Below, piece after piece: positions 3,238 through 7,892 of a stretch of 25,915 nt of DNA (within the stretch, counting starts at the first letter, position 1; each line of letters begins with the position of its first letter). The stretch comes from a virus. Its lineage: Duplodnaviria; Heunggongvirae; Uroviricota; Caudoviricetes. The stretch covers positions 1 through 25,915 of the IMG/VR virus record IMGVR_UViG_2671180841_000012; one strand, written 5' to 3'. The translations under genes and the position numbers were made by a program. Below the pieces are notes generated by a model, which saw only the letters and a list, made by a program, of their open reading frames with translations, was not told the DNA's origin and ran no database searches.

Positions 3238-3509
3238 GTATTCGTATCGAAATTGGCGAACGTTATGTCGTTACCAGTGACAGCTTTCAGTTTATTCTCC
3301 ACGAGAAAAAGAGAGCGGAAAGCGGTAAAAACGCCGGTCAGGAATGGCTGGCGGTGGTTGGTTATTACCCGAAATTAAGCCAGCTCGTTTCCGGCCTGAT
3401 GCATCACGATATTCTGACCGGAAGCGCAAAGTCTTTTGCTGATTTAAACGCGCAGGTTGAGCAACTCAGCAAGCGTTGTTCTGAGGCTTTTGGCTCATAT
3501 GGCCGTTAA
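3234..3509 (+). CDS. Hypothetical early protein (P2 orf83 position)
   Basis: 91-aa ORF; stop overlaps the start of A. Confidence 0.55.
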   Translation: MSIRIEIGERYVVTSDSFQFILHEKKRAESGKNAGQEWLAVVGYYPKLSQLVSGLMHHDILTGSAKSFADLNAQVEQLSKRCSEAFGSYGR

Positions 3510-5775
3510 AGCCTCCGGGCGTTTTGTCCCTCCGTCAGCATTTGCCGCAGGCACCGGTAAGGCGTTTACCGGTGCTTATGCATGGAACGCGCCACGCGAG
3601 GCTGTCGGGCGCGAAAGACCTCTTACACGTGACGAGATGCGTCAGGTGCAAGGTGTTTTATCCACGATTAACCGCCTGCCTTACTTTTTGCGCTCGCTGT
3701 TTACTTCACGCTATGACTACATCCGGCGCAATAAAAGCCCGGTGCACGGGTTTTATTTCCTCACATCCACTTTTCAGCGTCGTTTATGGCCGCGCATTGA
3801 GCGTGTGAATCAGCGCCATGAAATGAACACCGACGCGTCGATGCTGTTTCTGGCAGAGCGTGACCACTATGCGCGCCTGCCGGGAATGAATGACAAGGAG
3901 CTGAAAAAGTTTGCCGCCCGTATCTCATCGCAGCTTTTCATGATGTATGAGGAACTCAGCGATGCCTGGGTGGATGCGCATGGCGAGAAAGAATCGCTGT
4001 TTACGGATGAGGCGCAGGCTCACCTCTATGGTCATGTTGCTGGCGCTGCACGTGCTTTCAATATTTCCCCTCTCTACTGGAAAAAATACCGTAAAGGACA
4101 GATGACCACGAGGCAGGCATATTCTGCCATTGCCCGTCTGTTTAACGATGAGTGGTGGACTCATCAGCTTAAAGGCCAGCGTATGCGCTGGCATGAAGCG
4201 TTACTGATAGCTGTCGGGGAGGTCAATAAAGACCGTTCTCCTTATGCCAGTAAACATGCCATTCGTGATGTGCGTGCGCGCCGCCAGGCAAATCTGGAAT
4301 TTCTTAAATCGTGTGACCTTGAAAACAGGGAAACCGGCGAGCGCATCGACCTTATCAGTAAGGTGATGGGCAGTATTTCTAATCCTGAAATTCGCCGGAT
4401 GGAGCTGATGAACACCATTGCCGGTATTGAGCGTTACGCCGCCGCAGAGGGTGATGTGGGGATGTTTATCACGCTGACCGCGCCGTCAAAGTATCACCCG
4501 GCACGTCAGGTCGGAAAAGGCGAAAGTAAAACCGTCCAGCTTAATCACGGCTGGAATGATGAGGCATTTAATCCAAAGGATGCGCAGCGATATCTCTGCC
4601 GTATCTGGAGCCTGATGCGCACGGCATTCAAGGATAATGACTTACAGGTCTACGGTTTGCGTGTCGTCGAGCCACACCACGACGGAACGCCGCACTGGCA
4701 TATGATGCTTTTTTGTAATCCACGCCAGCGTAACCAGATTATTGAAATCATGCGTCGCTATGCGCTCAAAGAGGATGGCGACGAAAGAGGAGCCGCGCGA
4801 AACCGTTTTCAGGCAAAACACCTTAACCGGGGCGGTGCTGCGGGATATATCGCGAAATACATCTCAAAAAACATCGACGGCTATGCACTGGATGGTCAGC
4901 TCGATAATGATACCGGTAGGCCGCTGAAAGATACTGCGGCGGCTGTTACCGCATGGGCATCAACGTGGCGCATCCCGCAATTTAAAACGGTTGGCCTGCC
5001 GACAATGGGAGCTTACCGTGAGCTACGTAAATTGCCTCGCGGCGTCAGCATTGCTGATGAATTTGACGAACGCGTGGAGGCTGCACGCGCCGCCGCAGAC
5101 AGTGGCGATTTTGCGCTGTATATCAGCGCGCAGGGCGGGGCAAATGTCCCGCGCGATTGTCAGACTGTCAGGGTCGCCCGTAGCCCGTCGGATGACGTTA
5201 ACGAATACGAGGAAGAAGTCGAGAGAGTGGTCGGCATTTACGCGCCGCATCTCGGCGCGCGTCATATTCATATCACCAGAACGACGGACTGGCGCATTGT
5301 GCCGAAAGTTCCGGTCGTTGAGCCTTTGACTTTAAAAAGCGGCATCGCCGCGCCTCGGAGTCCTGTCAATAACTGTGGAAAGCTCACCGGTGGTGATACT
5401 TCGTTACCGGCTCCCACACCTTCTGAGCACGCCGCAGCAGTGCTTAATCTGGTAGATGACGGTGTTATCGAATGGAGTGACCCGGAGGTCGTGATGGCGC
5501 TCAGGGGCGCATTAAAACACGGACTGAGAACACCAAATCGTCAGCAAAGAAACGGAAGCCCGTTAAAACCACATGAAATTGCACCATCGGCCAGACTGAC
5601 CCGGTCGGAAAGAATGCAAATTACCCGTATCCGCGTTGACCTCGCTCAGAACGGTATCAGGCCGCAACGATGGGAGCTTGAGGCGCTGGCGCGTGGCGCG
5701 ACCGTAAATTATGACGGGAAAAAATTCACGTATCCGGTTGCTGATGAGTGGCCGGGGTTCTCGTTACCCATTTGA
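3499..5775 (+). CDS. A: Replication initiator A (rolling-circle, P2 gpA-like)
   Basis: Long ORF 3457..5775; start placed at the Met of MAVKASGRFVPP (3499), which overlaps the upstream stop; contains the HHDGTPHWHMM and YIAKYISKN motifs of rolling-circle initiators. In P2 the origin lies inside A; not located here. Confidence 0.88.
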   Translation: MAVKASGRFVPPSAFAAGTGKAFTGAYAWNAPREAVGRERPLTRDEMRQVQGVLSTINRLPYFLRSLFTSRYDYIRRNKSPVHGFYFLTSTFQRRLWPRIERVNQRHEMNTDASMLFLAERDHYARLPGMNDKELKKFAARISSQLFMMYEELSDAWVDAHGEKESLFTDEAQAHLYGHVAGAARAFNISPLYWKKYRKGQMTTRQAYSAIARLFNDEWWTHQLKGQRMRWHEALLIAVGEVNKDRSPYASKHAIRDVRARRQANLEFLKSCDLENRETGERIDLISKVMGSISNPEIRRMELMNTIAGIERYAAAEGDVGMFITLTAPSKYHPARQVGKGESKTVQLNHGWNDEAFNPKDAQRYLCRIWSLMRTAFKDNDLQVYGLRVVEPHHDGTPHWHMMLFCNPRQRNQIIEIMRRYALKEDGDERGAARNRFQAKHLNRGGAAGYIAKYISKNIDGYALDGQLDNDTGRPLKDTAAAVTAWASTWRIPQFKTVGLPTMGAYRELRKLPRGVSIADEFDERVEAARAAADSGDFALYISAQGGANVPRDCQTVRVARSPSDDVNEYEEEVERVVGIYAPHLGARHIHITRTTDWRIVPKVPVVEPLTLKSGIAAPRSPVNNCGKLTGGDTSLPAPTPSEHAAAVLNLVDDGVIEWSDPEVVMALRGALKHGLRTPNRQQRNGSPLKPHEIAPSARLTRSERMQITRIRVDLAQNGIRPQRWELEALARGATVNYDGKKFTYPVADEWPGFSLPI

Positions 5776-5991
5776 GTAAAAACACAACGTGATTTGATAT
5801 GGCATTGAATGGCTTATGCGGAGCAGTTATGGGGCAGCAGAAGGTCAATAGCATGCTGAATTAGAAGGCTAAATGCTATTGAGTGACTAGCATGTCGGTA
5901 AGGACAGCCGTTTGATCCGGGTCATAAAAGGCCATCCATTTAGTCTAATAAAATCATTGCGGGTAACCTTATGTCGACGCATAATTCGTCT

Positions 5992-6066
5992 TGAGCGAAG
6001 TCTTGTCAGTCTTTCATCGTATTGATGATGGGCGCAAAAAAACCACCCTGGCAGGTGGTTTTTTTG
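5992..6066 (+). ncRNA. Hypothetical small RNA (candidate antisense regulator of the 37-aa peptide mRNA)
   Basis: Promoter-like TTGCGG-N17-CATAAT (5957-5985) places a start near 5991-5993; a transcript would end at the bidirectional terminator (6036-6066). Its first 15 nt are perfectly complementary to the 5' leader of the convergent peptide gene. Purely predicted. Confidence 0.3.
6036..6066. terminator. Bidirectional intrinsic terminator
   Basis: AAAAAAACCACC-CTGGCA-GGTGGTTTTTTT: GC-containing stem flanked by an A-run on one side and a T-run on the other, so it reads as hairpin plus U-tract on both strands. Sits between the end of the A transcript and the 3' end of the minus-strand peptide gene. 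Confidence 0.7.
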
Positions 6067-6077
6067 TTTGAAGCATA

Positions 6078-6191
6078 TTAAAGCATAATGCTGACATTGA
6101 TATTACTGACGTTTACTGACAAACCACTCGGACTACCGTTTGGATAGCCAAAGAGGGCCAGAACGAGAATGCAGTAATAGCATTTCTTCAT
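6078..6191 (-). CDS. 37-aa hydrophobic small protein (candidate type I toxin-like membrane peptide)
   Basis: ATG at 6189-6191 (minus) preceded by AGGAGG four nt upstream; product MKKCYYCILVLALFGYPNGSPSGLSVNVSNINVSIML has two Lys then a ~13-residue hydrophobic stretch and a polar tail; stop TAA at 6078-6080 is followed by the terminator. The track ORF 6078..6344 is a longer in-frame extension lacking a comparable RBS. Confidence 0.55.
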   Translation of the reverse strand: MKKCYYCILVLALFGYPNGSPSGLSVNVSNINVSIML

Positions 6192-6669
6192 ATTGCCTCC
6201 TGTAAGTAGAGGGCAACTTCCACCGGTATATGCGCTTCTTAGGTGGAATGACTTTTGAGCGAAGTCTTGCCCTGAAATAATGCTCTGTTTAAACGCAAAG
6301 TGATTTGGCATATCACCGAACAGAGAGCCGGAAAAACACAACATATAGTATGTCGTTGTTTCTAGGCATACATTCTATGTTGTGTAACAAGGGCTTTGCA
6401 TTAAACATGTTTGAGATTTTATTGATGTAGCTCAAAGTAAAAAACAGAGACTACGGATGATAAGGTCTTGAAAGCAATGTAAATTTTTTAAAGTTGCCAA
6501 TTGCTTAAAAATGTACAGTTGCGGTATGGCGTACTTAAAAAGCTATGCATGCAACAAGTGAATGTTTTTGCATGCGTTGGGGATGTCCGTTCAGGCGGCG
6601 TGCGGTCAGGACTGGTGCGGATCCATAGTATCTATGCAACTGCATTAAAACCGCCCCGTGAAGCGGGCG

Positions 6670-6688
6670 GGCGAGGCGGGGAAAGCAC
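6670..6688. other. cos site (P2-type 19-nt cohesive end)
   Basis: Sequence GGCGAGGCGGGGAAAGCAC matches the P2 cohesive-end sequence as I recall it, in the expected place just upstream of Q. Its presence internal to the element fits a prophage permuted from att. Confidence 0.6.
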
Positions 6689-6857
6689 TGCGCGCTGGCG
6701 GTGGTGCTGATTTTATTTTTTCAGCGTCTGAGCGCGTCGTGATGGCGTTTAGATTGTTCGCCGGGGCGTTGGTGTGTCTGCGGGCTGTTTTGTGCGGTGG
6801 TGAGCGTGTGAGGGCGTGATGGCGGGGTGTAAAAAAGCCGCCCGCAGGCGGCGATGT

Positions 6858-7892
6858 TCAGCCGTTGTCAGTGTCCAGTGAGTAGTTTTTAAAGCGGATG
6901 ACCTCCTGACCGAGCCAGCCGTTTATTTCCCGAATCCTGTCCTGTAACGGGATTAGCTCATTGCGGACAAAGACCTTTGCCACTTTCTCAATATCGCCCA
7001 GTGACCCGACGTTCTCCGGCTTGCCACCCATCAACTGAAAGGGGATGCGGTGTGCGTCCAGCAGGTCAGCGGCGCTGGCTTTTTTGATATTAAAAAAATC
7101 GTCCTTCGTCGCCACTTCACTGAGCGGGATAATTTTAATGCCGTCGGCTTTCCCCTGCGGGGCATAGAGAAACAGGTTTTTAAAGTTGTTGCGGCCTTTC
7201 GACTTCACCATGTTTTCGCGAAGCATTTCGATATCGTTGCGATCCTGCACGGCATCGGTAACGTACATGATGTATCCGGCATGTGCGCCGTTTTCGTAAT
7301 ACTTTCGGCGGAACAGCGTGGCCGACTCATTCAGCCAGGCAGAATTAAGGGCGCTGAGATATTCCGGCAGGCCGTACAACTCCTGATTAATATCCGGCTC
7401 CAGCAGGTGAAACACGGAGCCGGGTGTGAAGGCTGTCGGCTCGTTGAAGGACGGCACCCACCAGTAAACATCCTCCTCCACGCCACGGCGGGTATATTTT
7501 GCCGGTGAGGTTTCCAGTCTGATGACCTTACCGGTGGTGCTGTAACGCTTTTCCAGAAACGCATTACCGAACACCAGAAAATCCAGCACAAAACGGCTGA
7601 AATCCTGCTGGGAAAGCCACGGGTGCGGGATAAACGTTGAAGCCAGAATATTACGTTTGACGTAAATCGGTGAGCTGTGATGCACGGCAGCACGCAGGCT
7701 TTTTGCCAGACCGGTAAAGCTGACCGGCGGCTCATACCATCTGCCGTTACTGATGCACTCGACGTAATCCAGAATGTCACGGCGGTCGAGTACCGGCACC
7801 GGCTCGCCAAAGGTGAATGCTTCCATTTTCGGGGCGCTGGCGGTGATTGTTTTTGCCGCAGGTCGCGGTGTTTTCCCTTTTTTCTTGCTCAT
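6858..7892 (-). CDS. Q: Portal protein (P2 gpQ-like)
   Basis: 344-aa minus-strand ORF, the same length as P2 Q; start overlaps the stop of P; first gene next to cos. Confidence 0.88.
   Translation of the reverse strand: MSKKKGKTPRPAAKTITASAPKMEAFTFGEPVPVLDRRDILDYVECISNGRWYEPPVSFTGLAKSLRAAVHHSSPIYVKRNILASTFIPHPWLSQQDFSRFVLDFLVFGNAFLEKRYSTTGKVIRLETSPAKYTRRGVEEDVYWWVPSFNEPTAFTPGSVFHLLEPDINQELYGLPEYLSALNSAWLNESATLFRRKYYENGAHAGYIMYVTDAVQDRNDIEMLRENMVKSKGRNNFKNLFLYAPQGKADGIKIIPLSEVATKDDFFNIKKASAADLLDAHRIPFQLMGGKPENVGSLGDIEKVAKVFVRNELIPLQDRIREINGWLGQEVIRFKNYSLDTDNG

Follow-up and report, generated by a model that had tools for sequence, protein, structure and literature searches.

What does a short exact repeat do in a stretch of prophage DNA where no gene is annotated? 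The locus that raises this question lies in IMG/VR record IMGVR_UViG_2671180841_000012, a P2-like prophage whose whole stretch of 25,915 nucleotides (nt) was analysed and is called the window here. A preliminary description of this DNA had pointed to the 15-nt sequence TTGAGCGAAGTCTTG, which occurs on the plus strand at 5991-6005 and again at 6255-6269, the second time in the leader of a small minus-strand peptide gene, and had read the two copies as a small RNA (sRNA) and its target in a type I toxin-antitoxin (TA) module. Our analysis indicates that the repeat most likely marks an antisense RNA pair inside a self-contained cassette of 575 bp, situated between the prophage genes gpA and gpQ, and we put the probability that this cassette represents an undescribed, mobile family of type I TA-like modules at roughly three in four.

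Both copies of the repeat were located as described, and the window holds no third one: they are the sole matches to the 15-mer at up to two mismatches, and two such matches arose in none of 100 shuffles. Among direct repeats of the window whose copies are no more than 300 nt apart, it is also the longest. Since, among 300 shuffles of the full 25.9 kb with dinucleotides preserved, just 2 reached a repeat of at least 15 nt at such close spacing, the earlier judgement that chance is an unlikely origin is upheld. The leader copy does lie upstream of the minus-strand peptide gene, but the distance of 66-80 nt given for it has to be corrected to 64-78 nt, counted from the A of the AUG (6191). The perfect complementarity over 15 nt stands as well, although its extent had been set too short, U·G and C-G pairs lengthening the predicted RNA duplex to 17 bp (5991-6007 with 6255-6271; -30 kcal/mol). 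When both strands of the window were searched, the best non-self site for the putative seed, copy 1, was the leader copy.

A lack of joint conservation of the two copies in homologous loci had been set beforehand as one outcome that would overturn the idea, and this outcome is not observed. Both are present in all 37 distinct cassettes, and they are kept in homologs merely 68-75% identical overall. Across the 37 cassettes, the longest word common to both copies measures 8-18 nt and the predicted duplex 14-18 bp. In a concatenated alignment, a 14-bp core is paired in 13 of 13 distinct seed/target combinations, mismatches being confined to the ends of the duplex. Wherever the copies differ within this core, the change is a transition, and a plus-strand sRNA would still form a G·U pair there with the minus-strand mRNA (three positions with U·G, one with G·U). 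One core position runs through the full path, from C-G (plasmid copies) by way of U·G (window) to U-A (divergent copy L069).

The same data bear on the idea that the repeat acts as DNA or is a neutral relic (a target-site duplication, a set of recombination or protein-binding sites, or a product of chance) with no RNA pairing at all. Insertions can yield direct repeats flanking a segment of about 250 bp, and the 15-mer alone reaches only about 1% significance window-wide. Both copies are, however, far better conserved than their surroundings in sequences about 70% identical, and their differences are all transitions that keep G·U pairing, plus one double change, whereas a neutral duplication would have decayed. 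In addition, no homolog lacks the intervening segment, and a predicted transcription start coincides exactly with copy 1. We find an explanation at the DNA level hardly credible.

The transcript predicted to begin there would be the sRNA. A sigma-70-like promoter sets its plus-strand start at about 5992, on the first bases of the repeat, and an intrinsic terminator would end it after about 78 nt, so the sequence-level prediction of a plus-strand small RNA near 5991 holds (Table 1). Column identities, computed over ten divergent cassette representatives, have a mean of 0.84 for the cassette, with conservation lying in islands on the predicted elements; they fall to 0.68 in the spacer of the sRNA promoter and to 0.70 between its -10 hexamer and the seed. 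The sRNA folds with a minimum free energy of -29.5 kcal/mol (z = -3.85). Its middle hairpin differs wholly in sequence between clades and yet keeps its pairing, with compensatory changes at five pairs of the consensus structure. The terminator is common to both convergent transcripts, whose 3′ ends would therefore overlap in cis and be fully complementary, with a predicted terminator-terminator duplex of -61.6 kcal/mol.

In prophages, the plus-strand partner of the leader might instead be the 3′ untranslated end of the early gpA transcript, which would tie control of the peptide to the lytic programme. In all P2-like loci, gpA is immediately followed by the cassette, the homologous block beginning about 137 nt after the gpA stop and always in the same orientation, and the shared terminator is the first one after gpA. 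Against this, plasmid copies, which have no gpA upstream, keep the -35, the -10, the 17-nt spacing, and the seed, and homology to the plasmids begins only at 5912, 137 nt past the gpA stop. We judge this origin of the partner distinctly improbable; an independent sRNA and a gpA 3′ end are, as sources of RNA, not mutually exclusive.

Opposite the independent sRNA, which we favour, the minus strand is predicted to carry the mRNA of the peptide. A position weight matrix (PWM) scan across the homologs found one site (6372-6377) that was the only promoter-like site at a single alignment column in all 9 representatives. The start that follows from it, near 6365, would make the mRNA about 330 nt long, some 174 nt of this being leader; the 3′ untranslated region has a column identity of 0.65. 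Around this promoter, two further features were observed. A long palindrome at 6336-6385, ACACAACATA...TATGTTGTGT with the inner part GTATG/CATAC, overlaps the predicted -10 and start and is mostly missing in L069; its possible roles are those of an operator or of a hairpin that stabilises the 5′ end. Prophage and plasmid copies also share conserved sequence over some 110 nt upstream of the -10 (6378-6486), with the blocks AAATTTACAT, TTTTTACYTTG, TCAATAAAA, and TTGATGCAAA, which might serve as an UP element, as an alternative promoter, or as a site where a regulator binds.

The leader was folded in four divergent mRNAs and, as a consensus, in 13 leaders, and both approaches agree on its layout: a hairpin H1, a three-way junction holding the sRNA target, a hairpin H2, and a hairpin in which the Shine-Dalgarno (SD) sequence is sequestered. 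In the junction, a C-rich strand (X) is paired with the target's 5′ half (T5, 6266-6273) and GACU with AGUC, which places the target partly within a stem-loop and leaves its loop CGCUCAA exposed. The named helices formed in 92% of cells, as against 37-51% with the partner slid. Compensatory changes were found in H1 (two U-A to C-G swaps in L069 and an inserted base pair in the divergent copy L073) and in the SD hairpin (three pairs altered on both sides), and in L073 H2 is a wholly different 8-bp stem. The predicted probability that the SD is unpaired is 0.03-0.2 in most homologs. A 7-bp pseudoknot between UGCGUUU in the internal loop of H1 and AAGCGCA in the loop of H2 is a candidate, formed in 88% of cells, with no covariation and with 10% of shuffled loops doing equally well. 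A 30-nt repeat of 73% identity between 5780-5809, just after the gpA stop, and 6291-6320 in H1 was considered as a second, degenerate cassette and rejected, the local alignment being at chance level (E about 0.2).

The helix between T5 and X has 6-7 bp and a predicted energy of -11 to -13.4 kcal/mol in 13 of 13 divergent copies, a result matched by at most 5% of shuffles, and it is built from four different sequence pairs (GGGCAA/UUGCCC, GGUGGC/GCCGCC, GGUGGU/GCCACC, and GGUGAC/GUCACC). X can also pair with the SD region, but more weakly and less consistently. T5 and the SD region (GGUGGCAA) have one and the same sequence in L073, which suggests that T5 mimics the SD and that binding of the sRNA would free X to clamp it.

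Table 1. Positions in the window of the cassette and of its predicted elements; values are mean column identities over the ten divergent representatives.
Feature	Position	Strand	Remarks
Whole cassette, 575 bp	5912..6486	.	Homology block common to P2-like prophages and enterobacterial plasmids; flanks unrelated
Predicted sRNA promoter, -35 TTGCGG	5957..5962	+	0.97 in 10 divergent copies
Predicted sRNA promoter, -10 CATAAT	5980..5985	+	Invariant in all copies (1.00); 17 nt from -35
Repeat copy 1, predicted sRNA seed	5991..6007	+	15 nt exact, then U·G and C-G; core 0.99
Predicted antitoxin-like sRNA, about 78 nt	5992..6070	+	Single-stranded 5′ seed, middle hairpin, terminator; ends putative
sRNA middle hairpin	6009..6033	+	Structure kept while sequence varies; 0.64
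Bidirectional intrinsic terminator, A7-CCACC-loop-GGTGG-T7	6035..6066	both	13-nt perfect inverted repeat; 0.99
37-aa peptide MKKCYYCILVLALFGYPNGSPSGLSVNVSNINVSIML	6078..6191 (stop included)	-	ATG at 6191, stop 6078-6080
Shine-Dalgarno AGGAGG	6196..6201	-	Predicted to be sequestered
C-rich strand X GUUGCCCUCU	6208..6217	-	Able to pair with 5′ half of sRNA target or with SD region
Leader hairpin H2, UUCCACC...GGUGGAA	6218..6248	-	Conserved AAGCGCA loop; compensatory changes in independent lineages
Repeat copy 2, predicted sRNA target in mRNA leader	6255..6271	-	64-80 nt upstream of AUG; core 0.97
Leader hairpin H1, CUCUGUU...AACAGAG	6283..6325	-	With inner stem; 0.96
Predicted peptide-mRNA promoter, -10 TAGAAT	6372..6377	-	0.93; -35 ATGCAA/TGCAAA; putative
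P2 cos core GGCGAGGCGGGGAAAGCAC	6672-6690	.	About 190 nt right of cassette

The open reading frame (ORF) behind this leader encodes a peptide with a basic N-terminus (MKK), a hydrophobic core of 13 residues, a G-Y-P motif, an invariant S-G (within S-x-S-G), and an uncharged tail in which N or S alternates with V, I, or L; in this it resembles a signal-anchor (membrane-insertion) sequence. All 16 variants have 37 residues except one with 38, and the ORF measures 114 nt, or 117 in one variant, across 21 distinct ORF sequences. Residues M1, C7-L11, L13-P17, S22, G23, S25, and V28 are invariant in the first twelve variants, and the ratio of nonsynonymous to synonymous substitution rates relative to the window copy is 0.14-0.35, indicating that the peptide is under purifying selection. 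Databases label it a hypothetical protein, as in ECW_m2278 of E. coli W. It has no match in Pfam, in NCBIfam (TimP model included), or in PHROGs, and none in PADLOC at E<=10; at the same threshold, the window peptide and two homologs match nothing in NCBIfam. A HMMER scan of 1.84 billion protein representatives returned only seven clusters, all of the same peptide family, two of them being new divergent variants whose loci were retrieved. In the library searched, no paper containing the peptide, the seed, or the database accessions came to light. The most divergent variants (MKRLYHCILVLALIGYP... and the 38-residue MNRWHYCILVLALFFGYP...) occur at L069 1501-1614, L070 1009-1125, and L071 68-184, where each has a small ORF at a distance of about 130-190 nt and, after it, a secretin gene (PF00263), a context that is neither P2-like nor that of any plasmid examined.

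The cassette is mobile and broadly distributed. Comparison of the window with 14 plasmid and metagenome loci by blastn gave a single block of 71-78% identity, running from 5912 or 5945 to 6443 or 6486. The cassette was found in 152 of 5426 complete E. coli genomes, the matches being intact in 152 of 155, and in 388 plasmids at a coverage of at least 80% and about 72-74% identity. These are mostly large conjugative IncF-type plasmids of Klebsiella, with some from Enterobacter and others, and some are IncFIB/IncHI1B plasmids from clinical isolates; three phage records also carry the region. Among lysogens with the cassette are LY180 and KO11FL, both derivatives of E. coli W, and MNCRE44. Scans with degenerate peptide-coding patterns recovered 68 copies and brought in 28 contigs from IMG/VR, 31 from metagenomes, and one from a Citrobacter genome, further copies coming from plasmids and E. 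coli. A signature of the sRNA that is independent of the peptide (the seed, 15-45 nt, and the A-run of the terminator), applied to 2.9 million viral contigs, regained 27 of the 28 loci found by way of the peptide, together with two further complete cassettes. One metagenome contig (L057) contains two diverged cassettes, at 3311-3870 and 6209-6791, about 2.9 kb apart, whose seeds and targets would cross-pair.

In the window, the cassette lies beside cos in the gap (5776-6857) between the gpA replication endonuclease gene (3457-5775, plus strand) and the gpQ portal gene (6858-7892, minus strand). This gap is a published P2 defence hotspot, where P2 itself has old and tin (PMC9122126). In this lineage, the hotspot is without any annotated protein gene, and RefSeq annotates nothing in the gap of the identical E. 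coli MNCRE44 locus. In related prophages, the variable cargo that separates the block from cos ranges from almost nothing (0.1 kb) to some 2.7 kb. Neither sRNAs nor type I systems are mentioned in two surveys of P2 hotspots.

Plasmid carriage and the position in a P2 defence hotspot suggest a role in plasmid or prophage addiction or in abortive infection. The chief alternative would be that the antisense pair is real and the peptide non-toxic, a small membrane or periplasmic accessory peptide under tight sRNA control that serves, for example, superinfection exclusion or envelope modulation and is neither addictive nor abortive. Its signal-sequence look with a polar N/S/V tail is not that of a classical pore-forming helix, endogenous levels of TimP, its closest analogue, are tolerated upon deletion of timR (PMC7667032), and the cassette occupies the site where P2 has exclusion genes (PMC9122126). 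Yet toxic peptides are typically controlled by just such means, a concealed SD, an antisense clamp (here of 17 bp), and a long structured leader (PMC11228461), and carriage on large conjugative plasmids, together with the intactness of the E. coli matches, fits an addiction module. A non-toxic peptide is in our view unlikely.

If the cassette is a type I TA-like module, we propose that it works as follows. The minus strand would produce the mRNA with its structured leader, hidden SD, and 37-codon ORF, and the plus strand a convergent sRNA with its own promoter, ending at the terminator of the mRNA. The first 15-17 nt of the sRNA would pair with the leader, the target being presented in the three-way junction beside the SD-sequestering hairpin, and the complementary terminator hairpins would provide a second contact, as in par of pAD1. 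Pairing would most likely block translation. It might do so by disrupting a conformation of the leader on which ribosome loading depends, as in timP, tisB, and zorO, or else by releasing the C-rich strand, which would then clamp the SD; cleavage of the 17-bp duplex by RNase III would probably be next. Should the sRNA be the shorter-lived of the two, loss of the cassette or shut-off of host transcription would lead to synthesis of the peptide, and the cassette would act as a type I TA-like addiction or abortive-infection module of prophages and plasmids. The most complete form of this picture joins a par-type layout and a timP-type leader to an SD-mimic structural switch, and makes an unrecognised mobile type I TA family a hidden cargo of P2 gpA-gpQ hotspots and of about 400 Klebsiella plasmids, acting in abortive infection or addiction. 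As a whole we offer it only tentatively, as a possible but doubtful one.

Several observations weigh against the TA-like reading. Both transcripts and their ends are deduced from sequence, the -35 of the mRNA promoter is weak, and a generic promoter/terminator scan had reported none of the relevant elements before the PWM scan was made. Covariation scores for the duplex and the leader are not above shuffle controls because most columns are invariant; with so few variable columns, the case for pairing therefore rests on strong co-conservation and on the direction of the few substitutions. The seed is unchanged across the whole cassette family, which could also mean further targets for the sRNA. 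Constrained folding with the target blocked, made to probe the proposed structural switch, left the predicted accessibility of the SD unaltered, closed in both states. As for the peptide, AlphaFold2 gives a low-confidence N-terminal helix (predicted local distance difference test score of 60), the hydrophobic stretch has just about 13 residues, the tail is uncharged and differs from classical helical type I toxins, and toxicity is argued by analogy only.

If the reading is true, the cassette would add a new family to the few enterobacterial type I TA systems and would be the first of these with the par-like layout known from Gram-positive plasmids. The P2 gpA-gpQ hotspot would then hold an RNA-controlled module that in this lineage is invisible as cargo to surveys of protein genes, and the module could aid the persistence of hundreds of large Klebsiella plasmids. 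The natural variation of the leader, with its four T5:X helix sequences, would offer a second system beside timP for processing-free control of translation by an RNA structural switch.

How, then, does the cassette compare with known systems? It has generic traits of type I TA modules: an ORF of fewer than 60 codons with a hydrophobic segment under selection, and an adjacent, co-conserved predicted sRNA with extended complementarity. Rfam yielded for the window, in gathering mode and at E<=10 on 5850-6500, only sub-threshold matches driven by the terminator (Phe_leader, RNAI, OrzO-P, and others), the score of OrzO-P, 21 bits with a threshold of 60, coming from the terminator alone.

The preliminary description had named tisB/istR-1 and zorO/orzO as models. 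At the level of sequence, the type I TA reading holds, through the promoter, the co-kept repeats, the wobble-compatible changes, and purifying selection, but these two systems are not the nearest analogues. They share with shoB/ohsC, dinQ/agrB, and the cassette an sRNA that pairs in trans (as predicted here) with a short stretch far upstream of a structured, SD-occluded ribosome-binding site, that is, the standby-site logic (PMC11228461). In contrast to the cassette, all four have divergent sRNA genes and no shared terminator, and their toxins are short amphipathic helices. Activation of their mRNAs is by 5′ processing. Furthermore, tisB and dinQ are controlled by LexA; such control was considered for the cassette and rejected, since no LexA box (CTG-N10-CAG) occurs in 5900-6500. 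With hok/sok the cassette has in common a small peptide, of membrane type by prediction, encoded on enterobacterial plasmids and prophages, where hok/sok modules act in post-segregational killing and phage exclusion. Sok, however, is a cis RNA that overlaps the leader of mok/hok, where translation depends on coupling to mok, and the peptide of the cassette is unrelated (no Pfam/NCBIfam match).

The predicted genetic layout matches that of par/Fst of the Enterococcus faecalis plasmid pAD1. Both have convergent promoters and one bidirectional terminator for toxin mRNA and antitoxin RNA, with complementary terminator hairpins; both have oppositely transcribed direct repeats in the DNA as a second region of complementarity and an SD hidden by a stem-loop; and both are borne by plasmids and phages (PMC7472228). 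They differ in host range, which is Firmicutes for par/Fst and enterobacterial for the cassette, and in the number and place of the repeats, since par has two (DRa and DRb) over the translation initiation region and the cassette one, well upstream of the AUG. Moreover, RNA II measures about 40 nt, as against the 78 nt or so predicted for the cassette sRNA, and toxins of the Fst/Ldr superfamily have PXXXG, a conserved Trp, and a charged tail, whereas the cassette peptide is without PXXXG and has no charge after position 3.

The logic of the predicted leader, on the other hand, is nearer to timP/TimR than to tisB/istR-1 or zorO/orzO. The likeness covers the peptide (37 residues here, 38-41 in TimP), with a signal-sequence-like N-terminus and a polar, N-rich tail; an mRNA of about 300-330 nt with a leader of about 145-175 nt formed of several stem-loops; an sRNA that uses its extreme 5′ end to bind, over 16-18 nt, a stem-loop located some 64-80 nt upstream of the AUG; and an SD locked in the last stem-loop, as is predicted for the cassette (PMC7667032, PMC11228461). 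In the K-12 locus, as read in this analysis, the TimR site likewise lies about 65-80 nt upstream of the timP AUG. Translation of timP is governed by the conformation of the leader and not by processing (PMC7667032, PMC11228461, PMC13000454).

Homology between the two peptides was considered, in view of a resemblance in MK..C.CI[LV][VL][LI] and S-x-S-G, and rejected: BLASTP found nothing, hhalign gave 9% over 11 N-terminal residues, and K-12 TimP scores 86.8 bits against NCBIfam NF040796 while the cassette peptide is unmatched. The Rfam model of ryfA (RF00126) has no match at gathering score on the whole window, nor at E<=10 on 5850-6500. Upstream of ryfA/timP in the sseA-ryfA region of E. coli K-12 (L068), the annotated timR is accompanied by another segment, made up of a terminator and a body, that is very similar to it; the two were seen at 1357-1456 and about 1690-1790, and the additional segment looks like a tandem timR-like copy.

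The systems also differ in further respects. The pseudoknot of the timP leader (SL1-SL3) is needed for translation, whereas the cassette has a conserved candidate only; TimR is divergent and lies upstream, whereas the predicted cassette sRNA is convergent and downstream, with a shared terminator; and timPR is a fixed chromosomal locus, whereas the cassette is mobile.

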